From contig CAIXTV010000130.1 of NCBI GenBank assembly GCA_903922465.1, positions 3,315 through 67,314 of the forward strand: a stretch of 64,000 nt of DNA, given 5' to 3'. Positions 2,350 through 63,871 of the stretch are shown here, piece after piece. The stretch's first letter is position 1. The number at the start of each line of letters is the position of its first letter. A model generated the notes under the pieces. The model did not search any database. It was not told the DNA's origin and worked only from the letters and a program-made list of their open reading frames with translations. The translations under genes and the position numbers were made by a program. Source of the DNA: an uncultured bacterium (GTDB taxonomy: Bacteria > Bacteroidota > Bacteroidia > Bacteroidales > CAIXTV01).

Positions 2350-3012
2350 TTAGAATTTATTAGAGAAATAATTTTTGTCGATTCCAGCATTAAGAATAAT
2401 GCCCTTGCCGATAGTGGTTACAACAATGCCACTATCGGCAATCGCCGGCTTGGCTTTTCGGGTTTTAAAGACACTAATTGTGCCTATGCCAACATTACCC
2501 TCGCGTGAAATATAATTTGAAGAGTTTACCCAGCGTTGTGGTCCAACAATGCGCATTCGTTCTTTTGCAATTACCGTATAAGGCATTAAAGGCATTGTAT
2601 GAAAAGTCATATCACGAGTAGATGCTTGTATGGAAAAATTTAAAGTATCCTCAGGATGAACTGAATTAGCACCATAGCAGAAAATCATACCTTTTTCACT
2701 TGGGGTAGATACGTCTGTTTGACCTCCTGTCCAAAGACGCCAGGAGTTTAATACATTTGAAGGTCCATCGGTGCGGAAGACTTCACCAATGTTAAATATT
2801 GATGAATTAGGTATAAGATTTGAATTAACATGTAGAGCTGAAAGAGGTGATGAAGTAAAATTACCAATACCTATAGTTGTTACAGTAGAATTTGTTATAC
2901 CACAAACATTACTGCTAAGTATTGGTTGATTAAATTGACCATAACTTGAATTAATGGCTGTGCAAATTGCAACAATAGTCACAATAATTGCTATTTTAAA
3001 ATCTGATTTCAT
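2350..3012 (-). CDS. B-family secreted protein B2 (220 aa), the most diverged copy.
   Basis: Shares IGIGNFT..LSALHVN, FRTDGPSNVLNSWRLWTGGQ, NFSIQASTRDMTFHT and ERMRIVGPQRWVNSSNYISREGNVGIGT with B1 and B3. Confidence 0.7.
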   Translation of the reverse strand: MKSDFKIAIIVTIVAICTAINSSYGQFNQPILSSNVCGITNSTVTTIGIGNFTSSPLSALHVNSNLIPNSSIFNIGEVFRTDGPSNVLNSWRLWTGGQTDVSTPSEKGMIFCYGANSVHPEDTLNFSIQASTRDMTFHTMPLMPYTVIAKERMRIVGPQRWVNSSNYISREGNVGIGTISVFKTRKAKPAIADSGIVVTTIGKGIILNAGIDKNYFSNKF

Positions 3013-3016
3013 AATT

Positions 3017-3856
3017 TTATTTTATTATAAAAAGTTTTTGTTTATACGTTTTTTTGTTTTTTGATATAATGATTAAATAAATTCCAGATGACAGATATGA
3101 TATATCAATATTTTCATCCGAAGAAAGAATATGTTTTTCAAGTACAATTTTCCCAAATATATTAAGGATTTGCAGATAAGAATTTTCACCATTAATATTT
3201 CTAATAGTAATGTTATCTTTTGCGGGATTAGGATATATGTTGATATATTTCGAAAATTCAAAATAATTTAACCCATCCCATGAAATTTTTTCAAGTTTTA
3301 TATTATCAATATTTGCACCCGATTGACCAAATTTGTTATTATAAATTGTAATTTCCAAAGAATTATTCGAAGCAATAAAAATAGTGTCTGCATACCTCCA
3401 TATAGTATCATTAATTAATGGTGAATACAATGTGTCATTTACATTTGAAAATTTAAAACATAAACGAGATGGCTGATTTGAATTGCCTCTGAATGTTTGT
3501 AAAGAATATAAATAACTAAGTTTATAAACAGAATCCTTTATTAATGGAGAAGTCAAAGTCGTTTTGCCTGCATCAAAATTTACAAAATCAATATAAGCCT
3601 TTCCTGATGATGCCATATGATTATCCCAACATGGTACAATGTTACCAACTAATCTATCAGGAGTACCAGATACAACGCTCCAAAAATCTGGACCTAAAAC
3701 AGTTCCAATCATTATACATGTAATATCAACACCATTAGTCCATCCTGCAGACGTACTATCTGGTCCTAATTCAAAATCACCATTAGGAATTAAGTTCTGT
3801 GCAATAATTGGGGATATAAGTAATATTATGCAAATTAAAAGTATTATTTTTTTCAT
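3017..3856 (-). CDS. A-family protein A2 (279 aa), CBM-like domain plus T9SS type A CTD.
   Basis: QNLIPNGDFELGPDSTSAGW, GPDFWSVVSGTPDRLV, and C-terminal YPNPAKDNITI...GIYLIIISKNKKTYKQKLFIIK. Confidence 0.75.
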   Translation of the reverse strand: MKKIILLICIILLISPIIAQNLIPNGDFELGPDSTSAGWTNGVDITCIMIGTVLGPDFWSVVSGTPDRLVGNIVPCWDNHMASSGKAYIDFVNFDAGKTTLTSPLIKDSVYKLSYLYSLQTFRGNSNQPSRLCFKFSNVNDTLYSPLINDTIWRYADTIFIASNNSLEITIYNNKFGQSGANIDNIKLEKISWDGLNYFEFSKYINIYPNPAKDNITIRNINGENSYLQILNIFGKIVLEKHILSSDENIDISYLSSGIYLIIISKNKKTYKQKLFIIK

Positions 3857-16708: not shown

Positions 16709-16890
16709 GGAAGAACTCGCCATTCCTAAATTCAGAATGGCGAGTTGTTCCAGAAGAAGTGGGCATTCCTCGTTCAGAATGGCGAGTTGTTCCAGAAGAA
16801 GTGGGCAGTCTGGATTCAGAATGGCGAGTTGTTCTGCTAGAAGTGGGCAGTTTGGATTCAGAATGGCGACTTCTCGGAGAAGAACTCGCC
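16709..16890. repeat. 42-bp tandem repeat, about 3.8 copies, bounded by hairpins.
   Basis: Units start at 16731, 16773, 16815 and 16857 (ttcagaatggcgagttgttccagaagaagtgggca...). 16709-16725 is the inverse complement of the unit core, giving a 17-bp stem with one mismatch. Confidence 0.9.
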
Positions 16891-23639: not shown

Positions 23640-23712
<73 letters not shown>

Positions 23713-28820: not shown

Positions 28821-28894
28821 AGCATTGATTCTCTTTAATTAAATTCATTTTTTATAGAGGAAATTTTAAATTTGAGACTTAAGATTTAAAGCAA

Positions 28895-29270
28895 AAATCC
28901 TGGGATATTTAGAAAAAATCTTGGGATTTTAAGTTGAAATCCTAGAATATTTTGCAGAAATCCTAGAATATTTTGCAGAAATCCTAGAATATTTTGCAGA
29001 AATCCTGGAATTTTAAGTTGAAATCCTAGAATATTTTGCAGAAATCCTGGAATTTTAAGTTGAAATCCTAGAATATTTTGCAGAAATCCTAGAATATTTT
29101 GAAAAAATCCTAGGATTTTAAATTGAAATAGTGGGATTTCAACTTAAAATAGTGGGATTAAAATTTGAAATTTCAGGATTTTAACTTGAAATAGCGGTAT
29201 AAAAAATTTTTATAGCCGGATTTCAAATCGAAATAGTGGCATAAAAAATCAAAATAACGAGATTTAAAAT
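28895..29270. repeat. Phased 21-bp tandem array organised as a long imperfect palindrome.
   Basis: aaatcc recurs at exact 21-nt steps from 28895 to 29105 (11 units). ggattt recurs at about 21-nt steps from 29113 onward (about 8 inverted units). The centre is the perfect palindrome aaatcctaggattt (29105-29118). Confidence 0.9.
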
Positions 29271-29430
29271 CAGGATTCGCTATAAATATTGATCCATACG
29301 AGAAAAACGCCTTCATTTACATCTTCAATAATCCTTCATTCATTAGCCAAAACTGAGGGCTAACTCTTAGTAATTTCAAACTTAGGTCTTATTTTCTTAT
29401 CCAGAACATCAGTAATTGATATTTTCTTTT

Positions 29431-29438
29431 TACCTTTG
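29431..29438 (+). promoter_or_regulatory. -7 box TACCTTTG for the C25 peptidase gene.
   Basis: 19 nt separate the box from the ATG at 29458. This supports that ATG over the track start at 29416. Confidence 0.45.
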
Positions 29439-29457
29439 TATTGTTAAAACTACAATC

Positions 29458-32400
29458 ATGAAAAAAATATTACTAATATCTGTTATTACTTTCTTTTTAT
29501 TTTCAATCATTACTGTTTCTTTTGCCGGGGAAATTCATTTCAATAAATCCGCTAAACAGGAATTATTAATAATAGAAAACAGTTCTTCGAAACTAATCGT
29601 TAAGAACACATTAAACACATTGGATTATACCCTTGTGAATACTTCAAAAGGGTCACATATCCGCCTTTCGGTTCCCGGATATGCAGCTTCTGAAAAAGTA
29701 GGCATGCCACTATTACCTGTTAACAAATCACTGATAGAAATACCGCTAGGCGCAACCATTAGCTATAAAATCACTTCATTTACGACTGAAGAAATTAAGT
29801 TGGCTGATTTCGGCATCGTTCAACCTTTGTTTCCGGCTCAAGCTCCCATTTCCAAAAGCTTTACGGGTGAAGTTGATTTAGTAAAGAATTCGCAAGCCTA
29901 TCAAAGTCAGGCTTATTTAAATTCAGATTTGGTGAAGATTGACAAAATAGGCATTATGCGAGGGCTCAATCTTGCCCGCTTGAATATTTGTCCGTTTCAG
30001 TACAATCCCGCGAAAAACTCCTTATTAATTTATCACAATATGGTTGTTGAAATTAGTTTTTCAGGGGCTGATGAAACAGCAACTATCGAACTCAAGAAGA
30101 AAAACAATTCGCCTTATTTCGATGCAGTGCAATCCACAGTGATTAATTATAAACCTCTTTTGCAAAAAGATTTGATTACCAAAGCCACAGTCAAATATGT
30201 TATTGTTTCCAACCCTATGTTTCAGGCAACACTTCAGCCTTTTATTCAGTGGAAAACCAAAAAGGGGTTCAATGTAATTGAGGCTTACACAAATAATCCA
30301 CTTGTCGGCAGCACAACCACTTCAATAAAAGCCTATTTGCAAGGGCTATATAATGCAGGAACTCCTGCCGACCCTGCTCCTTCTTTTGTTTTGTTTGTTG
30401 GCGACATTGCTCAGCTTCCTTCCTTTGATGGCACAACAGGAACTCATCCAACTGACCTTTACTATTGCGAATACACAGGCGATTTCCTACCCGAAGTGTA
30501 TTATGGAAGATTTTCTGCTGAAAATGTAGATCAATTGGCTCCACAACTCAGCAAAACCCTAGAATATGAACAATACCTCATGCCTGATCCTTCTTTTCTG
30601 AATCAAGTGGTGATGATAGCAGGGGTCGACGCTGGAATGGCTCCTACTTATGGTAATGGTCAAATTAATTATGGCACTCAAAATTATTTCAATTCCACTT
30701 TTGGACTTACTTCACACACCTACTTATACCCTGCATCTGAAACTTCAGCAGCTCAAATCATACAAGATGTGAACAATGGTTGTGGTTTTGCAAATTACAC
30801 TGCACACGGCTCTCCTTCCGGTTGGTCTAGCCCTGGTTTCTCGGTAAGTGATGTTAGTGGACTTACCAACAGCCATAAATATCCATTAATGGTAGGCAAT
30901 TGTTGTTTAACAAATAAATTTGATGAAACCGAATGCTTTGGCGAAGCCCTATTAAGGGCAACCAACAAAGGAGCCATTGGCTATATAGGTGGTTCGAACA
31001 GCACCTATTGGGATGAAGATTATTTTTGGGGAGTTGGAGTTAAAGCCATAAGTGCTAACCCTTCCTACTTAGCTTCCGCATTAGGCTCTTACGACAGGAC
31101 TTTTCATTCGCATGGCGAAACTTATTCAAATTGGTTTGTAACCCAAGGTCAAATGGTGATTGCTGGTAATTTAGCCGTTACACAAGGTTCTGCCGGCAGC
31201 ATGAATTACTATTGGGAAATCTATCATTTAATGGGCGACCCTTCTCTAATGGTGTATTATTCGGTTCCTCCTACCCTAACCAATAGTTATGCTCCATTCA
31301 TTCCTCTTGCTGCAACAACCTTTTCTGTTACTACCGAACCATACGCATATGTTGCTGTATCAATGGGAGGCATTTTACACGGAGCTGATTTCGCTGATTC
31401 AACTGGGATATGCAATCTAAACATTCTTCCTTTTAATATTCCCGGCTCAGCCGATGTAGTGATGACAAAGCAAAATCGTCAGCCTTTTATAGGCACAGTA
31501 AATATTCAAACTCCAACAGGCCCTTATGTGGTTTATAAATCTCATATTCAAAATGACCCCACAGGCAACAACAACCACCTTGCCGATTTCAATGAAATCA
31601 TTTCTCTTGATGTTACCCTGAAAAATTATGGCATAAACGACACTCTTGTTTCTGCCATTTTATATACTGCTGATACCATGGTAAGCATTCTTGACAGTAC
31701 CCATGCATGGGGTTTCATTGCTCAAAACGATTCCCTTGCCAAGTCGAATGCATTTTCTTTTAAGGTTAAGAACTTCATTACCGATCAACACAATGTTGTT
31801 TTTAATATTAAAGTGACGGATAATTTAGGGAATATTTGGATATCCACATTAACAGTAAAACTGAATGCTCCAGCTTTGGCCGCAGGAAATATGATAATTG
31901 CTGATAATGGAAATCACAACGGCAGGCTCGACCCAGGTGAAACGGCCACAATAACAATCACCAACCATAATTACGGTCATTCAATAGCAACAAACACAAC
32001 TGGGACCTTGTCAACCCAAAGTTCATTGATTACTATAACTAATCCAACGTCCCCAGTCGGGAATCTTCCAATTGGGGGAGATGGCAGTGCAACATTTAAT
32101 GTCATTGTTAGCAGTTCTGCTACATTAGGAACTTATCTTCCTTTGAACTACAACGTTGAATCTACCCCTTACCAAAACAGTAAAATATTTAGCACTATGA
32201 TTGGTTTGGTTTCTGAAGATTGGGAAACAGGAAGTTTTACAAAATTCAGCTGGACCCAAGTGAATACTTCTCTTTGGTCAATATCAAATATTCTTCCTTA
32301 CGAGGGTGTTTATTGTGCACAATCGGGCGCTATTTCAGACAACGAATCTAATGCCATACAAATATCAATGAATGTGTTAGCCGATGATAGTATTTCATTT

Positions 32401-32913
32401 TACAAAAAGGTTTCTTCCGAACTAAATTACGATTTCCTTGAATTTTATATTGATAATGTAAAAATTGATGAATGGTCAGGAGTCCAATCATGGAGTCGTG
32501 TTGTGTATCCTGTAATTTTCGGCAACCATACTTTTAGGTGGACTTATAGCAAAGACATCTCTTCAATTGGAGGAGAAGATAAAGCTTGGGTGGATTATAT
32601 CTTATTTCCTCCTGCTATTATTTCAAATGGGCTAAATGAAACTTCCAATGAGGATAATCAATTGATTATTTATCCTAACCCTGCAAAGGATGCTGTTCAA
32701 ATTTCATTTAACATGAATCAGTCTGCAAAAGTAGAAGCATCAATATATAATTCATTAGGGAAAAAACTTATTGTTATTCAAACATACAAAGAATTAGGGG
32801 TAGGAAATCAAATCATTAATATGTCTACCGAAAGCTTAACCTCAGGTATTTATTTTGTAAAACTAAACATTGGGAATAATCAGAAAACCATAAAGTTGAT
32901 TATTAACAAGTAA
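29458..32913 (+). CDS. Peptidase C25 (gingipain-like cysteine protease) with a T9SS type A CTD.
   Basis: YVIVSNPMFQATLQPFIQWKTKKGF; catalytic-type ANYTAHGSPSGW and PLMVGNCCLTNKFDE; C-terminal IYPNPAKDAVQISF...GIYFVKLNIGNNQKTIKLIINK. Confidence 0.85.
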   Translation: MKKILLISVITFFLFSIITVSFAGEIHFNKSAKQELLIIENSSSKLIVKNTLNTLDYTLVNTSKGSHIRLSVPGYAASEKVGMPLLPVNKSLIEIPLGATISYKITSFTTEEIKLADFGIVQPLFPAQAPISKSFTGEVDLVKNSQAYQSQAYLNSDLVKIDKIGIMRGLNLARLNICPFQYNPAKNSLLIYHNMVVEISFSGADETATIELKKKNNSPYFDAVQSTVINYKPLLQKDLITKATVKYVIVSNPMFQATLQPFIQWKTKKGFNVIEAYTNNPLVGSTTTSIKAYLQGLYNAGTPADPAPSFVLFVGDIAQLPSFDGTTGTHPTDLYYCEYTGDFLPEVYYGRFSAENVDQLAPQLSKTLEYEQYLMPDPSFLNQVVMIAGVDAGMAPTYGNGQINYGTQNYFNSTFGLTSHTYLYPASETSAAQIIQDVNNGCGFANYTAHGSPSGWSSPGFSVSDVSGLTNSHKYPLMVGNCCLTNKFDETECFGEALLRATNKGAIGYIGGSNSTYWDEDYFWGVGVKAISANPSYLASALGSYDRTFHSHGETYSNWFVTQGQMVIAGNLAVTQGSAGSMNYYWEIYHLMGDPSLMVYYSVPPTLTNSYAPFIPLAATTFSVTTEPYAYVAVSMGGILHGADFADSTGICNLNILPFNIPGSADVVMTKQNRQPFIGTVNIQTPTGPYVVYKSHIQNDPTGNNNHLADFNEIISLDVTLKNYGINDTLVSAILYTADTMVSILDSTHAWGFIAQNDSLAKSNAFSFKVKNFITDQHNVVFNIKVTDNLGNIWISTLTVKLNAPALAAGNMIIADNGNHNGRLDPGETATITITNHNYGHSIATNTTGTLSTQSSLITITNPTSPVGNLPIGGDGSATFNVIVSSSATLGTYLPLNYNVESTPYQNSKIFSTMIGLVSEDWETGSFTKFSWTQVNTSLWSISNILPYEGVYCAQSGAISDNESNAIQISMNVLADDSISFYKKVSSELNYDFLEFYIDNVKIDEWSGVQSWSRVVYPVIFGNHTFRWTYSKDISSIGGEDKAWVDYILFPPAIISNGLNETSNEDNQLIIYPNPAKDAVQISFNMNQSAKVEASIYNSLGKKLIVIQTYKELGVGNQIINMSTESLTSGIYFVKLNIGNNQKTIKLIINK

Positions 32914-32952
32914 GAATATTACCAATAATCCACACAATTGAACTTTAAAAAC

Positions 32953-32985
32953 AAAAAAACCTTCTTGAATCAAGAAGGTTTTTTT
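32953..32985. terminator. Bidirectional rho-independent terminator.
   Basis: A7 run, stem ccttctt / aagaagg, T7 run. It lies between the convergent C25 and oxidoreductase genes. Confidence 0.7.
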
Positions 32986-33002
32986 ATTTGAATACTTTAA
33001 CT

Positions 33003-33554
33003 TTAAAGAGTATGAACAGGATAAATAATATTCTTTCCTGTTTCAATTGCTTTTTCATTCTCCGGAATCATACCATGATGACGTTTAGGAAGTGATTTCT
33101 CTAATCCTTTGTGCATAAACTCAGGTAAAATAATAGGCTTTAATTTCAGATAACCACCAAGTACAATCATGTTAAACACTTTTGATATACCTAATTTTGC
33201 CGCTTCATCATTAGCATCTATTCTGTAAATGTTAATATCTTTACGTTCAGGATGTCTAGTTATTCCATTGCCGTCATAAACCAACAAACCACCTGGTTTA
33301 ACAGTGCTTTCAAACTTATCCATCGATTGTTGGTTGAGGATAATTGCGGTATCATATTGATGTACAATTGGAGAACTAATGCGTTCATCGCTTATAATTA
33401 CTGTGACATTTGCAGTCCCTCCTCTCATTTCAGGCCCATACGATGGCATCCATGAAACTTCTTGGTTTTGCATAACGCCTGAATAAGCGAGTATTTTCCC
33501 CATTGAAAGGACACCTTGTCCTCCAAATCCAGCTATAATAATTTCTTCTGTCAT
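33003..33554 (-). CDS. 2-oxoacid:ferredoxin oxidoreductase, gamma subunit.
   Basis: MTEEIIIAGFGGQGVLSMGKILA and the four-gene context. Confidence 0.85.
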   Translation of the reverse strand: MTEEIIIAGFGGQGVLSMGKILAYSGVMQNQEVSWMPSYGPEMRGGTANVTVIISDERISSPIVHQYDTAIILNQQSMDKFESTVKPGGLLVYDGNGITRHPERKDINIYRIDANDEAAKLGISKVFNMIVLGGYLKLKPIILPEFMHKGLEKSLPKRHHGMIPENEKAIETGKNIIYPVHTL

Positions 33555-40726: not shown

Positions 40727-41152
40727 ATGACTCTCAAAGAAATAGAAGAAGAAATCATTAGCGAATTTGAAGAATTCGATGATTGGATGGATAAATATAA
40801 CTACATCATCGAATTAGGCAAGAATTTGCCTATGATTGACGAGAAATATAAAGCCGACCAATTTCTTATTAGCGGTTGTCAATCGAAGGTTTGGGTGCAT
40901 GCTGAGTTTATTGAGGGAAAAGTAATTTTCTCTGCCGACAGCGATGCAATTATCACAAAAGGAATTGTAAATCTCCTTATTAGAGTTCTATCAGGCCGAA
41001 CTCCCGATGAAATATTAGAAGCCAAAATGGACTATATTAGCAAGGTTGGCCTCAATGACCATCTCAGTCCTACCCGTTCAAACGGACTAACTTCTATGAT
41101 TAAGCAAATGAAACTTTATGCTTTAGCATTTAAAACAAAACAATTAGGTTAA
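40727..41152 (+). CDS. sufE: SufE-like cysteine desulfuration protein.
   Basis: 141 aa with ISGCQSKVWVHAEF and RSNGLTSMIKQMK. Confidence 0.85.
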   Translation: MTLKEIEEEIISEFEEFDDWMDKYNYIIELGKNLPMIDEKYKADQFLISGCQSKVWVHAEFIEGKVIFSADSDAIITKGIVNLLIRVLSGRTPDEILEAKMDYISKVGLNDHLSPTRSNGLTSMIKQMKLYALAFKTKQLG

Positions 41153-41204
41153 AACCCCATATCTTATATTAATAAATTCAATTCACAAATTAAAATATTG
41201 TCCC

Positions 41205-41525
41205 ATGGAAATCCTTAACCCTAGCCCTTTAGAAGCAAAAATAATTGAAAAACTTAAAGATATATTTGATCCCGAGATTCCTGTAAACATTTTTGATCTG
41301 GGTCTGATTTATGGTATACGCGTCAATCCAGAAAATGAAGTCCATATAATAATGACGCTAACTTCGCCCAACTGCCCTGTTGCAGAATCGTTGCCTAACG
41401 ATGTTCATAATGAGATATTATCAATTGAAGAAGTGAAAAACGTTAACATCGAACTTTCTTTCGATCCTCCTTGGGATAAAGATATGCTTTCTGAAGAAGC
41501 GATGCTTGAATTGGGTTTATTATAA
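41205..41525 (+). CDS. DUF59 / SufT-like Fe-S cluster assembly protein.
   Basis: DPEIPVNIFDLGLIY and MTLTSPNCPVAESL. Confidence 0.8.
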   Translation: MEILNPSPLEAKIIEKLKDIFDPEIPVNIFDLGLIYGIRVNPENEVHIIMTLTSPNCPVAESLPNDVHNEILSIEEVKNVNIELSFDPPWDKDMLSEEAMLELGLL

Positions 41526-41538
41526 GCCCACAAATGAT

Positions 41539-41850
41539 GGTTTGAAACGTCATTGCGAGGAACTAACCTGCCTAACAGGCAGAGAAGGACGAAGCAATCT
41601 CAAACCTAAAAAGCTGTTTAGCTGTTTAGTAGTTTAGGCTTTTAGGAAGAAAAAGTCCCAAGTCCCAAGTCCCAAATTTCAAATTCCAAGACCCAAGGGG
41701 TGAAATCGCTTACTTGAAACTTCAATGCAAGGGGAAATGGCTTGTTTGAAACGTCATTGCGAGGAACTAACCTGCCTAACAGGCAGAGAAGGACGAAGCA
41801 ATCTCAAGCCTAAAAAGCTGTGTAGTAGTTTAGGCTTTTAAGAAGAAGGA
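41539..41850 (+). repeat. About 1.7 tandem copies of a ~190-bp REP-like composite unit (left arm of a foldback structure).
   Basis: gtttgaaacgtcattgcgaggaactaacctgcctaacaggcagagaaggacgaagcaatctcaa occurs twice (at 41540 and 41744), with cccaagtcccaagtcccaaatttcaaattccaag between the copies. Confidence 0.88.
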
Positions 41851-42131
41851 CCAAAAATCAGATTTTTAATTGAAAATAGGGGGATTGGGTAAGAGTTATT
41901 AGGTTAATGGGTGGATTTGAGGTGAAGGATATGGTGATTTCAGGTGCAAAATGGGCTAGACTGATTTCCGATTATATTTATCTTTCTAATGTTTTGGCAC
42001 TGTTTCTGTAGTTGAAAATTTTTCAATACATCACTTCAATATTTTGTTTTTGAATAGCTATTGTTTACCCACAGCATTTTGCCCTATTAGGTTTTTGATG
42101 AAATTTTGCTTTCAAATGGGAAAATAAACAT

Positions 42132-42420
42132 GTTTGTCGTTATGACGAGCAGCATCATAGTGAAAAATAAGTTTGTTTGTCACAGTGATTGGTTGAATCA
42201 TAGCATAAAATAAGTTTCTTTATCGTCATGAACCGGAGCGTCATAGTGTAAAAGGAGTTTCTTTATCCTTATGAACCGGAGAGTCATCCTATAAAAGGAG
42301 TTTCTTTATCGTCATGAACCGGAAATTCATAGTATAAAAAGAGTTTCTTTATCGTTATGAACCGAAGAGTCATAGTATAAAAGGAGTTTCTTTATCGTTA
42401 TGAACCGGAGCGTCATACTT
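42132..42420. repeat. 43-bp tandem repeat, about 6.8 copies.
   Basis: Units start at 42132, 42171, 42214, 42257, 42300, 42343 and 42386 (gtttctttatcgtcatgaaccggagcgtcatagtgtaaaagga). Confidence 0.88.
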
Positions 42421-42987
42421 AATTACGTAGGGATTCAGAGGACAACCACCATTTTTTTCCTCCTCCTGAGCGGCGAATTTTTACGATGAGGATAATTTGC
42501 AATTATCATCATTATTAGATGCATTCTGTTACAAAACAACACGATTTAAACCTTAATAGAAAAACCACTAAAACACCTAACTCCAACCTTATTAGCATTT
42601 CGAGAGGAGAGAAGGTAATAAGCTTAGGGTTAATAAGGCCTTGGCTTTTCTATTAAGGTTTGGAAGGGGAAGAAGACTTTTATTCAATTGACAATTGAGA
42701 ATGGAAAATTGACAATGATTTTTTACCGATATATCATCCCTGACGGGATTTGGAGAATTAAAAATGGGTTGTATGGTAACTCTTAAATGGTAAATGGATT
42801 GATACAAAGTAATAATTTATGGGTTTGTGTTTATTGATATTATATCAGGCTTGTGAGAGAAAGATGTAATTAGCGAATTTATTTTATCATATTTTTGCAA
42901 GAGTAAATCAGCAATTAAATCATAAAAATCAGCGTTTCTTGAATCAGCGTCATCAGCGTTCTATTTTTCCAACTAATTAAATTTGCA

Positions 42988-43710
42988 AACAGCTTTTTGG
43001 CTTTGAGATTGCTTCGTGCTATGACGTTTCAAATGGGCGGTTTCGTCTTGCAATACCGTTTCAAATAAACGGCTTCCCCTCTTGGGACTTGGAATTTGAA
43101 ATTTGGGGCTTGGGTCTTTTCTTCCTAAAAGTCTAAACTACTAAATGTCTAAACAGCTTTTTTGTTTTGAGATTGCTTCGTCCTTCCCTGCCTGTTAGGC
43201 AGTGAAGTTCCTCGCTATGACGTTTCAAATGGGTGGTTTCGTCTTGCAATACCGTTTCAAATAAACTGCTTCCCCCCTTGGGACTTGGAATTTGAAATTT
43301 GGGGCTTGGGTCTTTTCTTCCTAAATGTCTAAACAGCTAAACAGCTTTTTGGGTTGGAGATTGCTTAGTCCTTCCCTGCCTGTTAGGCAGTGAAGTTCCT
43401 CGCTATGACGTTTCAAATGGGCGGTTTCGTCTTGCAATACCGTTTCAAATAAACGGCTTCCCCCCTTGGGACTTGGAATTTGAAATTTGGGGCTTGGCTC
43501 TTTTCTACCTAAATGTCTAAACTACTAAATGTCTAAACAGCTTTTTGGCTTTGAAATTGCTTCGTCCTTCCCTGCCTGTTAGGCAGTGAAGTTCCTCGCT
43601 ATGACGTTTCAAATGGGCGGTTTCGTCTTGCAATACCGTTTCAAATAAACTAATCCCCCCCTTGGGACTTGGAATTTGAAATTTGGGGCTTGGGTCTTTT
43701 CTTCCTAAAA
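42988..43710 (-). repeat. About 3.8 tandem copies of the same ~190-bp unit, inverted relative to 41539..41850 (right arm).
   Basis: The anchor ga(g/a)attgcttcgt occurs at 43005, 43169, 43357 and 43553. The reverse complement aligns with the left-arm unit at roughly 85-90 percent identity by eye. The last unit contains the stop codon of the 43705..45510 gene. Confidence 0.88.
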
Positions 43711-45510
43711 GCCGTCTGAAACTCTAATTTTAATGCTCCCCCTCTTCAGTTGAAAAGGAATTTTATCCACGTTCCATAAATAAACAAGCATTTTTTTTGC
43801 GTCCTTAGCGTCATGAGGAATCCAAATCTTAACAGAAGTAGTGCCATAGGGCGAGAGAAAAGCAGCCTGAAGCCATTCAAGAGGAGAGTTTTTGTAGAGG
43901 ATGTTGCCCCCGGCGCTGTCACTCAACGAACAAACTAAATGCAAACGGGGAGCCTTGCGAAGGGTCTGCAAATTAAATTGTGTTTCAATCAGAAAACATT
44001 GCCCACCAAGGGTGTCGGCTCTTGATGTTTCGTAGAAACCAAAAAACTCATCATTGCAAGTTGAAGGGCTGTTAATATCGGTTCTTTGATAAACATCCAC
44101 AGTGCGATGAATGCTTTTTCGCTTGGCAAGTGTTATATTCGACCAGCGATCGGTGTAAACCGAATCATAAAGATTTCTGTTTAAATCAAAATCACCCCTG
44201 ACATACATTATAAAGTCCTCGTAATTGCTGTAATAATCAGCGAACTGAAGATTTTGAAGCTTATCCTTCTCCTGATAATTATACCAAGCCCATTGAAGAG
44301 ATTGCATATGATAGCCGCCTATAGTAGGATCCTTTATTCCGTTAGTGTCCGAGGTTTGATCATGAACTTTATTCCAGAATTCTTTCGAAATCCCTTCATC
44401 TTTCCATAAAGTAGTATATCCTAAATTCATATGAAAAACAAAATGCACTAAAAAGAAAATCGAAAAAGCATAGGCTAAGTAATGAAAGCGGGCATGGAGT
44501 TTGTCGAGAATAAACAGCATCGAAAGCCAAAGAAGTAAAATCAAATGCATTCCCGTGCGGTCAGAAGGATAATTGATGTTTAAAAGCCATTTCATCATAA
44601 AAAGGCCTGCAACATTCAAAAATAATAGCCCGGGTAAGAGGATGGTGGCAAATTCATTGGACGTTTGAGTCTTAAAGCGATAAACAAAGACAGACAACAG
44701 CAAGATGCTGATTATAAACCAGCACACCCAAATGGAATCGGCTAAAGGATTGATACTTCCGAAATACATCCGGCTAAAGGATGAAATGGAAACTTCCCAA
44801 AAACTTTCGCCTTCGCCATAATACAAGAGGTTCAAGGACTTAAGTTTGAAAGAAAGCATCACCAAGGGGATTGAAAAGACCATAAACATGCCGAGAAGCA
44901 GGCTTATTTTCATCTTAAAAAGGCTTTTTCGGAAGTTCAACACTTGCTGAAGACCTACAAGAAAGCAAAAAATGAGGGCGATGTTCAATAAGGTGAGATT
45001 ACCAAGTATTGCGAACCAGAAAAACATTAGGGAATAGCTCAAATGCTTCAATTTGTATTGCCTGAAAAAAATAAGACCAAAATAGAAAGCCCCCATCAAC
45101 AAAGCCATCGAAATGCCATAGCCTCGGCTCAAGGTGAAAAACTCGATAAACCCATGCATACATAAACCTAAAGCCCAAAAGGAAACCCTCAGTAACTTAT
45201 GCTCTAACAATTCGCTCAGTTTTAGGAGGAAGTAAGCATACACTATAAAAAACAGCAGATTAGGCAGGCGAAGGGCAAAAAGGTTATTCCCCAAAAGACG
45301 AACCGACCCTATACTCAAAGCCGAATTGATGAGGTGATTGTTTGCATCCCAATGGGCTAATCCCGGAATGAATTCGCCTTGTATAACGTAATGAAAGAAG
45401 GTAGCGGCTTCATCGTGCATGATAGGCACATAGCAGGCCCTTAGAATCAGATAGATGAAAACTAATGCTGCACTTATGAAAAATGTGAGCCTGTTGCTTA
45501 TGATATTCAT
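43705..45510 (-). CDS. GT-C fold membrane glycosyltransferase (ArnT/PMT, GT39/GT83-like).
   Basis: It has at least 10 TM helices, a first-loop HDEAATFFHY (DE motif), and a ~200-aa C-terminal soluble domain. Confidence 0.55.
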   Translation of the reverse strand: MNIISNRLTFFISAALVFIYLILRACYVPIMHDEAATFFHYVIQGEFIPGLAHWDANNHLINSALSIGSVRLLGNNLFALRLPNLLFFIVYAYFLLKLSELLEHKLLRVSFWALGLCMHGFIEFFTLSRGYGISMALLMGAFYFGLIFFRQYKLKHLSYSLMFFWFAILGNLTLLNIALIFCFLVGLQQVLNFRKSLFKMKISLLLGMFMVFSIPLVMLSFKLKSLNLLYYGEGESFWEVSISSFSRMYFGSINPLADSIWVCWFIISILLLSVFVYRFKTQTSNEFATILLPGLLFLNVAGLFMMKWLLNINYPSDRTGMHLILLLWLSMLFILDKLHARFHYLAYAFSIFFLVHFVFHMNLGYTTLWKDEGISKEFWNKVHDQTSDTNGIKDPTIGGYHMQSLQWAWYNYQEKDKLQNLQFADYYSNYEDFIMYVRGDFDLNRNLYDSVYTDRWSNITLAKRKSIHRTVDVYQRTDINSPSTCNDEFFGFYETSRADTLGGQCFLIETQFNLQTLRKAPRLHLVCSLSDSAGGNILYKNSPLEWLQAAFLSPYGTTSVKIWIPHDAKDAKKMLVYLWNVDKIPFQLKRGSIKIRVSDGF

Positions 45511-55107: not shown

Positions 55108-55296
55108 GGCGGACGAAAAAATCAAGAGTACGGAAAATGAATTCAAGAGTGGGAATAAAGAAATCAAACTGGCGGACGAAAAAATCAAACTGGCGGACGA
55201 AAAAATCAAATTGATGGATGTTGAAATCAAAAGAGCGGAAGGCAAAAAATACTAGGCGGACGATGAAATCAAGAGGGCGGATGATGAAATCAAGTG
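55108..55296. repeat. Phased 21-bp tandem array, 9 units.
   Basis: The ggcggacg-type unit heads lie at 55108, 55171, 55192, 55213, 55234, 55255 and 55276, all multiples of 21 apart. The unit is ggcggacgaaaaaatcaaact. Confidence 0.88.
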
Positions 55297-55766
55297 AAAT
55301 TTTGGGCTTCCGCAGGCTTATTTTTACCGTTTACCTAAAAAGAATAATTAACAGCTAGGTATTTCTCATAATGCTAGTTGTAATATTCTACTTCCATGAA
55401 CTTAATTTTCTATTTCTGAGATTATTACTCATCTGAAATTCTATAATTTTATATATTCTAGTAACATATGTTTACGAATGCACAGTTTTACTGATCATTC
55501 GTCAATTAGGAATAGTCATCCAAGGGTTAAAAATGATGATTTTAGGATAAAAACCGGCCATTCTAACAATATAAATCATTTATATTCAGCTATTAAACCG
55601 ATATTTTCAATTGTTTTTTATAGAGAAGAAGATAGGAAAATAAAAAAGTCCCAAATCATCAATGAAAAACTCAGAATTTAAAGTCATTTCCATGACTTTA
55701 AGGATGAATTTTCCACTTTTAATTTGGGACTTTCGACCTATACAGGCTTAAATTCCTGTATATTAT

Positions 55767-56744: not shown

Positions 56745-56768
56745 TGTTTTTGATATTAATTTAGGTGC

Positions 56769-56907
56769 TTAGGCATTTAGACTTTTAGGACAGTCGTTTT
56801 CTACCTAAACTCCTTATATTATACAGTTTATTAATTGCATTTTCAATAGTATTATGTTTAATTTCTTCATTCTAAAAGACTAAAAGTCTACAAGACTAAA
56901 TGCCTAA
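56769..56907. repeat. Inverted repeat in the spacer between the two coiled-coil paralogs.
   Basis: ttaggcatttag+acttttag (56769-56788) matches the reverse complement of ctaaaagtctacaagactaaatgcctaa (about 56880-56907), apart from an 8-nt insertion in the right arm. Confidence 0.7.
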
Positions 56908-56911
56908 AATC

Positions 56912-57814
56912 CTATTTAAGCTCAAATTGTCCCTGACCTATTTCATTATCCTCAAGGAAAACATTTACTTTATAAACCCCCTTCATGGCTTCATCTTTAG
57001 GATTTTGTTTTTCCCAATACATGCAAACATTCACAGCGGCATTCTGATAATCAACTTCCTTTTTTATTGAATATTGCAAACGTTGACCTTTATACATGAA
57101 AGAATACACCTCGTCGCTACCTAGGGTTACGATTTTATTATCAGGGCGGGCAATTCTGATGAAAACAGATCGGTTGCCCGGTTTAGCAACAGGGTTTTCG
57201 GCAAGCGTAAAACATATCTTTATCTTTTCAACCCTGCGGGCTTTATCAACAGCCTCTTCTTTTTTCCCTGACGACTTCATTCTTATAGGTTGTGCTGTCA
57301 CATTATATGCTTTAAGCACGGCAGCCATGTTTACTTTTTCGGTCAATTCATCTTTATCTTTAACCAATAATTGAGTCTTATCTTTCTCTTTGCTAAACTC
57401 ACCTTTGATGAAAGTGTTTTCTTCGTTCAATTGTTTGTTAACACGATACAAGGAATCAATTTGAGAAATATAACCTTGAGTCATATTGCGTAAAAGCGAT
57501 AATTTCTTCTTGATTTTATTATAATCGGCCTGGGTGCTAATAAGTTTTTCAATCTCCATAGCATCAGCCTGAATGAGACTATCTTTAGAAGTAAGCTTAT
57601 TTGAAAGACTGCCATATTCCTCTTTTATTTTTGTGTGTTCTTTCATCAAGGAATCTAATTCAGTTTTTAGGCCAGTGTTTAAACTTGAAGTTTCTTGCTG
57701 TTGTACAATAATAGTATTCACCCGCGAAGTTTGAGTAATCAATAAGAGAGCAAGAATAATAATGACTATCGCTTCGATAATGATTATGGTTCTGAGTTTT
57801 TTAGTGTTTTCCAT
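56912..57814 (-). CDS. Membrane-anchored coiled-coil protein with a C-terminal beta-rich domain (paralog 2).
   Basis: The architecture matches paralog 1. AAVLKAYNVTAQPIRMK..VEKIKICFTLAENPVAKPGNRSVFIRIARPD aligns with the paralog 1 C-domain. The track start at 57820 is TTG; I use the ATG at 57814. Confidence 0.6.
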   Translation of the reverse strand: MENTKKLRTIIIIEAIVIIILALLLITQTSRVNTIIVQQQETSSLNTGLKTELDSLMKEHTKIKEEYGSLSNKLTSKDSLIQADAMEIEKLISTQADYNKIKKKLSLLRNMTQGYISQIDSLYRVNKQLNEENTFIKGEFSKEKDKTQLLVKDKDELTEKVNMAAVLKAYNVTAQPIRMKSSGKKEEAVDKARRVEKIKICFTLAENPVAKPGNRSVFIRIARPDNKIVTLGSDEVYSFMYKGQRLQYSIKKEVDYQNAAVNVCMYWEKQNPKDEAMKGVYKVNVFLEDNEIGQGQFELK

Positions 57815-62205: not shown

Positions 62206-62490
62206 TTTAGAAGTGTATAATTTGTTTGAAGCAAAAATGGAAAATTATGGAAGCAGCAAACGCAAGATATTATGGAAATTTCGATAAAATGAGGCTTTAA
62301 TTTTGATCTAAAACTTCAAATCAATCAAAAATAGGGTCGGAAAACATCTAAAAATAGTGTTTTTTTCATTTGTTTTTGGTTTTGGAAATAATTTTGTTGA
62401 AAAACATGAAAATTTGAAAATCGCTGAAACTCTCATTCTCATTGGGTTTGAAAACATGAAGTGATTTTGAAAACCATTTTTATATGATAA

Positions 62491-62700
62491 ACAAAAAAGA
62501 TAAACATATAAAAATCGATTTTTACAGCAAAACCTAAAATGATAAACCTATAAAAATTCATTTTCATAGAAAAACCTAAAATGAAAACCATATAAAAATT
62601 CATTTTCATAGCAAAACCTAAAATGATAAACCTATAAAAATCGATTTTCATAGGAAAACCTAAAAAGATAAACATATAAAAATGGATTTTTATATGAAAG
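62491..62700. repeat. 42-bp tandem array, 5 units.
   Basis: Units start at 62491, 62533, 62575, 62617 and 62659. Each contains an aaaaat(c/t/g)(g/c)attttt pseudo-palindrome. Confidence 0.88.
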
Positions 62701-63066
62701 TCATTTTGTATATTGATATAAAAATATTTTTTCAGGTATTTTCCATTAATACTCTTCTAGCGAAAATGAATTTTCATATTAAAAGTCAAAATATTGACGC
62801 ATCAAAAATCGATTTTTATATCAGTTTACTTAAAGAAAATTCTCTATATATCAATTTTCAATATAAAAATAATAATGAAAATCATCTGAAAATGTTCCTT
62901 TCAAACCCCATTCTTGATAACAATAAATGAACAGAGTAATGGCAATTCAAATGCACATCAATTATACAAAAATTTACTTCTATTGATTAAAAACCTGAAA
63001 AAGAAAACTTCAAAAAACTTAAATTTTCAGCCGACAAAATTAAGGTGGATGAATTTTCGGGGAGTT

Positions 63067-63420: not shown

Positions 63421-63480
63421 GAGTTTTGGTTTAAAACGTTAAAATTACAGATTATTTACGAATTATCAAGGAAAAAAAAA

Positions 63481-63871
63481 GAAACAACAGTTCGATAAGC
63501 CGGATTCTGTTTCCCAACGAATTGGAAATTCTATCATTTATCTGGAAACGTTATCACTAACGAGTTCAATCAGCCTACCCCCCGGAAATAGACGAGCCAT
63601 CTATGATCTGTAAACAGATGCTTCCGGTATATTTGGCCTTTCAACCCATAAGGTTTACCCCCACCCTATATCACTATAAAGCGTTGTGAGCTCTTACCTC
63701 ACATTTTCACCCTTATTGCGACGAGTCGCAACGGTTATTTTCTGTGGCACTCTCTGTCTTGCGCCAGTCATCCAACGCAATCCTTCCCGTTAGGAAGTAT
63801 GGTGCTCTATGTTGTCCGGACTTTCCTCCACGGTACTTTTAAACCGAGGCGATAGAATGAACTGTTGTTTC
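63481..63871 (-). ncRNA. rnpB: RNase P RNA, bacterial type A.
   Basis: The reverse complement contains GGAGGAAAGTCCGGAC (P4 5' strand), AGAGAGTGCCACAGAAA, AAGGGTGAAA..GTGAGGTAAGAGCTCAC, GAAAGGCCAAATA, GGGTAGGCTG and ACAGAATCCGGCTTATCG (P4 3' strand). The termini pair as P1 (GAAACAACAGTTC / GAACTGTTGTTTC). Confidence 0.93.

Follow-up and report, generated by a model that had tools for sequence, protein, structure and literature searches.

Inverted arrays of a modular, hairpin-forming repeat in a convergent intergenic region of an uncultured Bacteroidales bacterium: a probable BIME-like mosaic cluster

Between two convergent genes in a 64-kb stretch of DNA from an uncultured Bacteroidales bacterium (hereafter the window; all coordinates are window positions unless a locus name such as L001 is given) lies a gene-free island in which a unit of about 190-204 bp is tandemly repeated in two arms of opposite orientation around a non-coding core. 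We show that hairpin modules, each dispersed independently of the others, make up the unit as a mosaic, that the arrays are non-coding and variable in copy number, and that the island is absent in relatives. In the reading that we favour, with a probability of roughly 0.6, the island is a lineage-specific mosaic cluster of non-coding, hairpin-forming intergenic modules that resembles the bacterial interspersed mosaic elements (BIMEs) and is neither a gene, whether for a structured RNA or otherwise, nor itself a transposon. BIME-like is used here for a mode of operation and does not denote membership of the family of repetitive extragenic palindromes (REPs) and BIMEs. The stop-to-stop gap between the left-hand gene, which encodes a DUF59 protein, and the right-hand gene, which encodes a 601-aa protein, is 2179 bp (41526-43704), and its initial description as a gene-free island of 2.2 kb held: the longest open reading frame (ORF) in this interval is 71 aa with a TTG start and has no Pfam match, and no Rfam family matched 41400-43900 at the gathering score, with nothing credible even at E<=5.

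The unit has the same sense relative to either flanking gene, and read in that sense its modules follow the order A-B-C-D. Module A (GTTTGAAAC-GTCATTGCGAGGAAC-[TAACCTGCCTAACAGGCAGAGAAGGA]-CGAAGCAATCTCAAAC) is a palindromic GTCATTGCGAGG...GCAATC element that carries a 27-nt hairpin insert in this island; as an imperfect palindrome (ATTGC...GCAAT) it folds at -16.5 to -18.6 kcal/mol (z about -2.8), both strands alike. Module B is a run of GTTTAG words, module C a low-complexity block (AAGTCCCAAG...CCCAAATTTCAAATTCCAAGNCCCAAGGGG) that corresponds to the C/A-rich arm of a low-complexity hairpin, and module D a half-copy that corresponds to A's left part. All four parts that a first-pass annotation of this DNA had assigned to each unit were present, and its proposal that the unit is itself modular and REP-like was borne out, since A without the insert is a widespread palindrome, C is a phylum-wide hairpin arm and the insert is separable. 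One right-arm unit had been said to lack the hairpin module; the hairpin is indeed absent from this innermost copy, R4, and the loss is one of 32 nt (joining CATAGC to ACGAAGC), not about 27, which takes out the CTGCCTAACAGGCAG hairpin. The 13 distinct copies of the module A hairpin vary too little for an analysis of covariation. A 38-aa ORF is repeated in each unit and its frame is shifted by the 32-nt deletion in R4; a hidden coding repeat was rejected because the deletion breaks this ORF and the sole protein-search match is itself a spurious ORF.

The left arm (41540-41850, plus sense) contains two copies of module A, at 41540 and 41744, spaced by 204 nt. The two-copy array described earlier stands, and its extent is corrected from about 1.7 units of about 190 nt to 1.5 units of 204 nt. 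Its full unit, L1 (41540-41743, 204 nt, plus strand; nhmmer E 5.8e-62), comprises module A at 41540-41605 with the hairpin CTGCCTAACAGGCAG at 41568-41582, the GTTTAG words of module B at about 41606-41655, the low-complexity module C (CCCAAG...CCCAAATTTCAAATTCCAAG...GGGG) at about 41656-41703 and the half-copy D at about 41704-41743. The innermost partial unit on this side, L2 (41744-41850, plus strand), consists of A and the beginning of B, is about 93-96% identical to L1 (93% over 97 nt) and ends in the same phase as the innermost left copy of a second island, described below, in L001. The right arm (42988-43709, minus sense) agrees with the earlier estimate of about 3.8 units in the opposite orientation: Tandem Repeats Finder (TRF) reported 3.6 copies with a period of 196 over 43018-43709 (92% matches, score 1216), to which the truncated innermost copy is added. 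From the inside outwards, all on the minus strand, it consists of R4 (42988-43034; module A minus 32 nt), three full units (43035-43613; R3 43034-43229, R2 43230-43417 and R1 43418-43613, of 196, 188 and 196 nt; nhmmer E 1e-63 to 1e-69) and an outermost partial unit, R0 (43614-43709), made up of the end of B followed by C and D; the start-to-start spacings in this arm are 188 and 196 nt. Three sub-motifs of the unit gave 2, 5 and 10 matches, all inside the arms, compared with 0.00, 0.03 and 0.27 expected in a shuffled 64-kb window, and nhmmer with a profile of the unit found no copy outside the two arms in the window. The repeat scan, TRF and the shuffle controls therefore agree on inverted tandem arrays around a core, with the units confined to the arms.

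The arms abut the flanking genes closely, as had been claimed for both sides. The first unit begins at 41540, 14 nt past the TAA of the DUF59 gene (41523-41525), and the TAG of the 601-aa gene (43705-43707) lies within the outermost right-arm copy, R0. TRF places the outer limit of the right array at 43709 and nhmmer homology reaches 43722, an overlap that is probably chance or microhomology. Between the arms, the core (41851-42987, 1137 bp) is non-coding and unique in the window. It contains a 43-bp minisatellite at 42198-42417 (5.1 copies; TRF 86% matches, score 335) and a long, near-perfect hairpin of about 120 nt at 42545-42665, whose 20-nt terminal arms (42548-42567 and 42642-42661) are 95% complementary. 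As RNA this hairpin folds at -39.9 kcal/mol (z -4.6), a stability that none of 200 shuffles reached; the window has a single copy of it, it has no Rfam match and it could be a small MITE (miniature inverted-repeat transposable element) or a small RNA (sRNA). The core ends on the right with module E, a set of ATCAGCG words at 42928, 42943 and 42952 that together with about 110 bp of inner flank occupies 42860-42987 (minus strand) and also lies next to the innermost right-type copy in two other islands, L001 and L053.

The modules are far more widely distributed than the unit that they compose. When a 20-mer of module C was used to query one genome per species, it was found in 37 DNA stretches, 35 of them in Bacteroidota metagenome-assembled genomes (MAGs) from groundwater and lakes; the other two of the 37 are chance matches inside Clostridia genes. 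Several MAGs carry it in multiple copies (for instance GWA2_32_17, n=8, and ELA062, n=7), and it is absent from IMG/VR. As a rule the 20-mer supplies the 5' arm of a local hairpin, with a G/T-rich partner downstream: a partner lies within 150 nt downstream at 18 of the 35 distinct sites and upstream at none. Module C sites favour the 3' ends of genes, with 11 convergent, 10 tandem and 3 divergent settings among the 24 sites that were classified.

Module A without its 27-nt insert is the 24-mer GTCATTGCGAGGAACGAAGCAATC, which occurs in 39 IMG/VR contigs of 37-55% G+C. Prefixed by TTTGAAAC, it was also found in three metagenome contigs from the Joint Genome Institute (JGI), in two of which it pairs with an inverted partner into a perfect 28-bp hairpin, one directly after a stop codon. 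Across these 39 and three contigs insert-free module A lies mostly between ORFs, and in the IMG/VR contigs it takes the form of inverted pairs bracketing 66-200 bp, solo copies, or 41-nt tandem arrays closed by an inverted copy; its variants fit GTCATTGCGAG-N(7-25)-GCAATCTC. Several IMG/VR contigs are rich in insert-free module A or its variants, among them L060 (8244-9165), with three MITE-like inverted pairs of about 130 bp, and L089 (692-893, 3350-3552 and 5503-5672), with 41-nt arrays capped by an inverted copy, as well as L061 and L086. In viral and proviral contigs the palindrome often extends to CC-GTCATTGCGAGG...CCTCGCAATGAC-GG. Generic module A or its variants had no Rfam match at seven loci, and their gene context in viral contigs is uninformative because the genes there are mostly co-directional.

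Three further observations concern relatives of these modules. In GWA2_32_17 (L009, L010, L012, L015, L029, L033 and L037) the module C hairpin lies within a conserved multi-copy element of more than 200 nt. At its start this element has a Bacteroidetes -7-like box, TTATACTTTG, and it also contains GGTATAGGGTATA and TATACC hairpins; L006, L025 and L028 were noted alongside these loci. The element could be a family of sRNA genes or of MITEs. A motif A(A/T)TTTATCCCG is found just downstream of the module C hairpin at five loci from four MAGs. In the window itself, two intergenic segments (56753-56915 and 55645-55733) contain local hairpins built from words of the module B and C type (TTTAGGCATTTAGACTTTTAG with CTAAAAGTCTA...CTAAATGCCTAAA, and AAAGTCCCAAAT with ATTTGGGACTTT).

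The complete unit, by comparison, was sought with the spurious ORF of the 38-aa type as bait against 5.8 billion proteins, and this search returned one further complete unit, in L053, a 763-bp contig from the same sampling series. A complete ABCD unit is also present in L001. The unit is therefore not unique to the window locus, uniqueness being part of what the first-pass annotation would have counted against its own proposal, and it is known from this population alone, in the window and at least two further junctions (L001 and L053). A plasmid or phage origin was rejected, as the unit had no blastn match in PLSDB or INPHARED. In a limited literature search we found a description of neither module family, nor of a 21-bp periodicity in Bacteroidota, and searches with the sequence strings gave primer coincidences only; the GTCATTGCGAGG...GCAATC palindrome and the CCCAAATTTCAAATTCCAAG hairpin arm thus appear to be undescribed families. 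What is new here, in addition to these two apparently undescribed families, is the higher-order unit of about 190-204 bp and the segregation of its orientations into arms.

Comparison with other contigs indicated that the arrays vary and that the island marks a break in gene order. All comparative DNA comes from short-read metagenome assemblies. The left arm has one copy of module A in L002, two in L003 and in the window, and three in L001, next to an identical DUF59 protein and with a 99.6-100% match to the window. All six short-read contigs in which the 601-aa gene and its downstream DNA could be read end 46-337 bp past the stop codon, inside the array. Each arm has been homogenised separately: copies are 93-98% identical within an arm and 78-90% between arms (R1-R3 are mutually 95.7-96.4% identical and match the left-arm copies at 84-90%, and inverted pairs of 98-188 nt between the arms are 79-90% complementary), there are fixed arm-specific differences such as CATTGC/CATAGC and CTAACC/CTTCAC, and the longest exact match between the arms is 22 nt. 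Past its left arm, L001 continues into a different core, module E, a degenerate right arm and a nadB-like gene on the plus strand, so that its array lies upstream of, and antisense to, that gene. The L001 core (2804-3226) measures 423 bp, and its inverted ends, 27 nt long and 85% complementary, enclose a minisatellite of 21 bp x 7.4 (TTGAGATGAAGCATCCGAAGC). The window, L001 and L053 have their inner boundaries in common (A-B on the left, A-B'-E on the right) and differ in their cores; a third continuation past the DUF59 gene, into a 160-aa gene, was seen in two further contigs.

In the two closest relatives, with 87% and 83% identical DUF59 proteins (L056 and L059) the five upstream genes are kept and no units are present. 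DNA homology with the window stops at 41525 in L056 and at 41515 in L059, so the loss falls at the DUF59 stop codon or no more than 10 bp from it, after which one relative has a 63-bp minisatellite and the other the next gene 1 bp later. Likewise, downstream of genes for homologues of the 601-aa protein (63% and 50% identical) there are only minisatellites with a 42-bp period, and no units. Since the relatives lose homology at the DUF59 stop and lack the units, the island is lineage-specific and lies at a synteny breakpoint. A check for empty sites in the relatives yielded no clean one, because relatives without the island also have different neighbouring genes. The core showed no BLAST similarity to the L001 core, except in its right-hand 130 bp or so, and none to the DNA downstream of the homologues; a derivation of the core from ancestral intergenic DNA shared with relatives was therefore rejected, the 42-bp-period arrays downstream of the homologues notwithstanding, and homology of the minisatellites is unsupported.

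A BIME-like cluster could have arisen as follows. Short repeats of four kinds, all of them common between the genes of Bacteroidota, would have been joined into the higher-order unit. The left arm carries A(+) and C(+) and the right arm A(-) and C(-), the polarity seen in the small A pairs and C hairpins elsewhere, and because the arms keep the polarity of the parent hairpin, the simplest history is that the island began between convergent genes as a single large palindrome in which such elements were nested. The arms may then have been amplified independently, in tandem, by slipped or unequal recombination. Such an island would persist because the space between convergent genes, where no promoter is disrupted, tolerates insertions, and any effect it has would be a by-product, whether as scattered 3'-end hairpins, as a spacer between converging transcription units or as a substrate for rearrangement.

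BIMEs are extragenic mosaics of palindromes and other motifs that occur in clusters, in both orientations, at 3' ends or between convergent genes and in variable copy number; their properties include an association with REP-associated tyrosine transposases (RAYTs) and the binding of gyrase, IHF and Pol I. More generally, BOX and the REP clusters or BIMEs behave as modular, tandemly varying intergenic repeats. Like the REP and BIME sequences of E. coli and other Enterobacteria, the island is a non-coding extragenic mosaic with short imperfect palindromes, tandem repetition, both orientations and variable copy number; module A is a short imperfect palindrome dispersed in extragenic DNA, module C is likewise dispersed, and the ABCD units form mosaic clusters in both orientations. 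Unlike REPs and BIMEs, to which it has no sequence relation, the island has a unit of about 190-204 bp, far longer than a REP pair, and its orientations do not alternate but are segregated into arms 1.1 kb apart. A GTAG-type head is a conserved feature of enterobacterial REPs, and inspection of the sequence found none in module A or in the other modules. Other known elements bear a likeness of a similar kind. Prokaryotic MITEs and modular pneumococcal and neisserial repeats such as BOX, RUP, SPRITE and Correia are short, hairpin-forming and intergenic, some with variable internal modules and some located in 3' untranslated regions (UTRs) or terminator-like (review, PMC10969869). The island is like them in being built of short, modular, hairpin-forming intergenic repeats; unlike these dispersed single elements of about 100-300 bp, its modules are fused into a higher-order tandem unit found at few loci in one population.

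Several points weigh against a BIME-like cluster. The complete unit is known from only three types of junction, all in one environmental population. Short-read assemblies may collapse tandem repeats or misjoin paralogous ones, which affects both the copy-number differences and the alternative junctions. Constant inner boundaries around different cores would also be expected of a mobile composite element with variable cargo, and a selected function at the RNA level may exist. Finally, the likeness to REPs and BIMEs is drawn from sequence organisation.

One alternative, which we consider unlikely, is that the island is a selected 3'-UTR device, in which the sense units act as terminators, as barriers to 3' exonucleases or as an insulator against collision of convergent transcription. 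Both arrays start at, or no more than 14 nt from, a stop codon, in the sense orientation for both genes, so the first-pass annotation had the geometry right in stating that the unit would have one and the same sense in either convergent transcript. Elsewhere, hairpins of the C type are enriched between convergent genes (11/24, against 3/24 between divergent ones) and generic A hairpins occur just after stop codons. In addition, inspection of the antisense strand of each unit revealed AGCTAAACAGCTTTTT, a weak 4-bp stem followed by a T-run, which could halt read-through into the opposite arm. Against a terminator, no canonical hairpin with a U-tract is present in the sense orientation: the CTGCCT-AAC-AGGCAG hairpin is followed by AGAAGG or GGAAGG and not by a U-tract, terminator-like sites in 41000-44200 number two where 3.4 are expected, and the only such site within the arrays is weak (6 pairs, 43669-43652). 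A classic bidirectional intrinsic terminator, with an A-run, a ACCTTCTTGA/TCAAGAAGGT stem and a T-run, is used at another convergent pair (32925-33013, between the genes at 29416-32913 on the plus and 33003-33554 on the minus strand), indicating that the organism uses canonical terminators where the island has none. RNAs of the two arms are no more stable than shuffled sequences (z -0.3 and -1.1), module A is equally stable on both strands, and module C in the island is 1.3-2 kb from its pairing partner. A selected device also leaves unexplained why 1.5 and 3.8 copies should be needed, the L001 array runs antisense to the gene beside it and lies upstream of that gene, and the relatives do without an array altogether.

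That the island is a non-autonomous foldback-type mobile element, with long inverted ABCD arrays around a variable minisatellite core, moved in trans and responsible for the break in synteny after the DUF59 gene, is a possibility to which we give little weight. Eukaryotic Foldback (FB) transposons have long inverted terminal regions of tandem subrepeats around a non-repetitive middle, and the island resembles them in architecture only. Movement would account for the common inner arm boundaries and module E that the three islands or junctions combine with different cores, and for the continuation of the same DUF59 gene into at least three contexts (the window core, the nadB-like gene of L001 and the 160-aa gene of two contigs). 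Generic module A, moreover, behaves elsewhere like the terminal inverted repeat of MITE-like elements of 66-200 bp. The expected termini are nonetheless missing. Because the outer arm ends are in different phases of the unit, the left beginning with A (GTTTGAAACGTCATTGCG) and the right finishing in C/B (...CTTGGGTCTTTTCTTCCTAAAAG), the island has no matching termini, and no target-site duplication is evident, as the flanks in the window (...CACAAATGATG and CCGTCTGAAACTC...) and in L001 (ATAACTCAATTT) have no direct repeat in common. No transposase or recombinase, including a Y1 transposase, was found among the approximately 30 window ORFs examined. Thus, of the foldback architecture that had been proposed, the long inverted arms of tandem subrepeats stand, whereas matching termini, a target-site duplication and a transposase were not found. 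Unlike the FB transposons, the island also shows no evidence of movement, and its arms, only 78-90% alike, have been homogenised separately. The alternative junctions may, in turn, be misassemblies induced by the repeats. At 2.17 kb without coding capacity, the island is far above the tens to a few hundred bp of typical prokaryotic MITEs. The earlier remark that such an architecture is unusual in bacteria was overstated, since smaller inverted tandem arrays occur in the same window at 28891-29270 and 62470-62731, where tandem units of 21 or 42 bp are directly followed by the same units inverted; inverted tandem arrays are accordingly a recurrent intergenic pattern in this genome.

The L001 core (423 bp, 27-nt inverted ends, 21 bp x 7.4) invites a comparison that likewise bears on mobility. 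BrickBuilt, a MITE of Porphyromonas gingivalis, has a 23-nt minisatellite between a conserved leader and a conserved tail (no longer than about 300 nt), and its inverted ends are small (Klein et al. 2015, PMC4596501). It is a strictly intergenic Bacteroidales element of variable length and copy number, with 19 genomic copies and spurious ORFs annotated inside it (PMC4596501). The islands are like BrickBuilt in being composite, intergenic Bacteroidales elements of variable length with a minisatellite (21-22 or 43 bp here) and spurious ORFs, and the L001 core, with its inverted ends around a 21-bp array, comes closest to that design. Unlike BrickBuilt, the arms here are inverted tandem arrays of a 190-bp unit, and the minisatellites have periods of 43 bp (window), 21 bp (L001) and 21 bp (L053) with mutually unrelated sequences, so that the design is analogous and the family different; the likeness is one of design, no similarity in sequence having been seen or tested for. 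It is doubtful, in our estimation, that the window, L001 and L053 islands form a hitherto undescribed family of foldback-like composite elements (ABCD arms, a module E junction and an exchangeable core with a minisatellite period of about 21 bp) whose movement or recombination among loci reshuffles the gene order of these Bacteroidales. If the islands do move or recombine in this way, the three different continuations past the DUF59 gene would be explained, and bacteria would have in these islands a counterpart of foldback elements that drives breaks in synteny.

Two remaining explanations are far less probable. It is very unlikely that the arrays were created or inflated by the assembler: short-read assemblies do break or vary within them, but independent assemblies reproduce, with every base the same, the left arm and the first 1.7 units after the 601-aa gene. 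In two other contigs, spurious ORFs would sit at the distances from the flanking genes expected for arms of the length seen in the window, and because the copies differ at diagnostic positions the arrays are not a simple collapse or duplication. That the island is an invertible, phase-variable segment, in which recombination of the inverted arms flips the 1.1-kb core, is hardly credible even though inverted arms of 300-700 bp flank the core and DNA inversions are a known feature of Bacteroidales: as each flanking gene points into the island, an inversion would have no gene to switch, a full Bacteroidetes-type promoter is absent from the core, no recombinase gene is nearby, both contigs that cross the junction of left arm and core (2/2, a small sample) have the orientation of the window, and the 22-nt longest match and the fixed arm-specific differences argue against exchange between the arms. 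The suggestion that the arms could mediate inversion of the core is accordingly unsupported. Two candidates of other kinds were also rejected, a replication terminus or dif-like region, as there is no switch in GC skew at the island, and a CRISPR array, as the units run head to tail without unique spacers and the neighbouring genes have no cas-like Pfam matches.

For now the island serves mainly as a warning and as an item for a catalogue. The island shows uncultured Bacteroidota filling tolerant intergenic space with hairpin-forming, low-complexity modules. Its arrays explain both the breaks and misjoins of short-read assemblies at the locus and the spurious calls of small ORFs, and the repeat libraries used in annotation would benefit from including the GTCATTGCGAGG...GCAATC palindrome and the hairpin arm CCCAAATTTCAAATTCCAAG. 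Across the island as a whole, no full Bacteroidetes-type promoter (TTTG...TAnnTTTG) was found, and sigma-70-like matches in the region are at chance level.

Turning to the flanking genes, the DUF59 gene (41205-41525, plus strand; PF01883, FeS_assembly_P, E 2e-17), identified from the ORF list, is the final gene of a SufE-DUF59 cluster of the SUF type. The right-hand gene (43705-45510, minus strand) encodes a membrane-protein-like ORF of 601 aa that has no Pfam match even at E<=10. Some homologues (28-40% identical) carry PF13231, and one is named as a glycosyltransferase of family 39; the protein is thus probably GT-C/PMT_2-like, an uncharacterised glycosyltransferase of the GT-C type, and the GT-C label that it had first been given holds by way of these homologues and not through a match of the protein itself. 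The homologues (P0002-P0120) form a Bacteroidota family of about 600 aa, mostly without a Pfam assignment and in a minority with PF13231 (PMT_2), in which the motifs HDEAATFFHY, RGYG(I/M)SM and NYPSDRTGM are conserved. The end of the 601-aa gene is ancestral, because RVSDGF, at its C-terminus, is aligned to GVSEGK in the homologue with 63% identity, and this alignment rules out the repeat as the creator of the C-terminal codons. The gene adjoins genes related to the type IX secretion system (PorP_SprF and DUF1573). The only matches in the window at the Rfam gathering score are an RNase P RNA of class A (63480-63868, minus strand; 248.8 bits) and one tRNA (23640-23712, plus strand).

Intergenic minisatellites in this and related DNA strongly favour periods in multiples of about 21 bp, a length that corresponds to two helical turns. 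All five arrays of the window (16730-16869, 28891-29270, 42198-42417, 55108-55293 and 62470-62694) have such periods (about 21, 42, 63 or 84 bp), and other examples are found in L001 (2897-3051), L050 (9798-10133), L052 (1871-2051), L053 (697-761) and L056 (1458-1600 and 6374-6573), as well as in L039, L041, L032 and L018. Over 431 kb of loci, TRF reported 66 arrays, of which 28 show a period of exactly 21, 42, 63 or 84 bp and another two one of 43 bp, a count that is partly biased by the module C search, module C itself having a 21-bp period. The excess of such minisatellites may deserve a study of its own. The arrays are unrelated in sequence, and several of their units have a short central palindrome (TTCTAGAA, ATCGAT, CCGG or AAGCTT).

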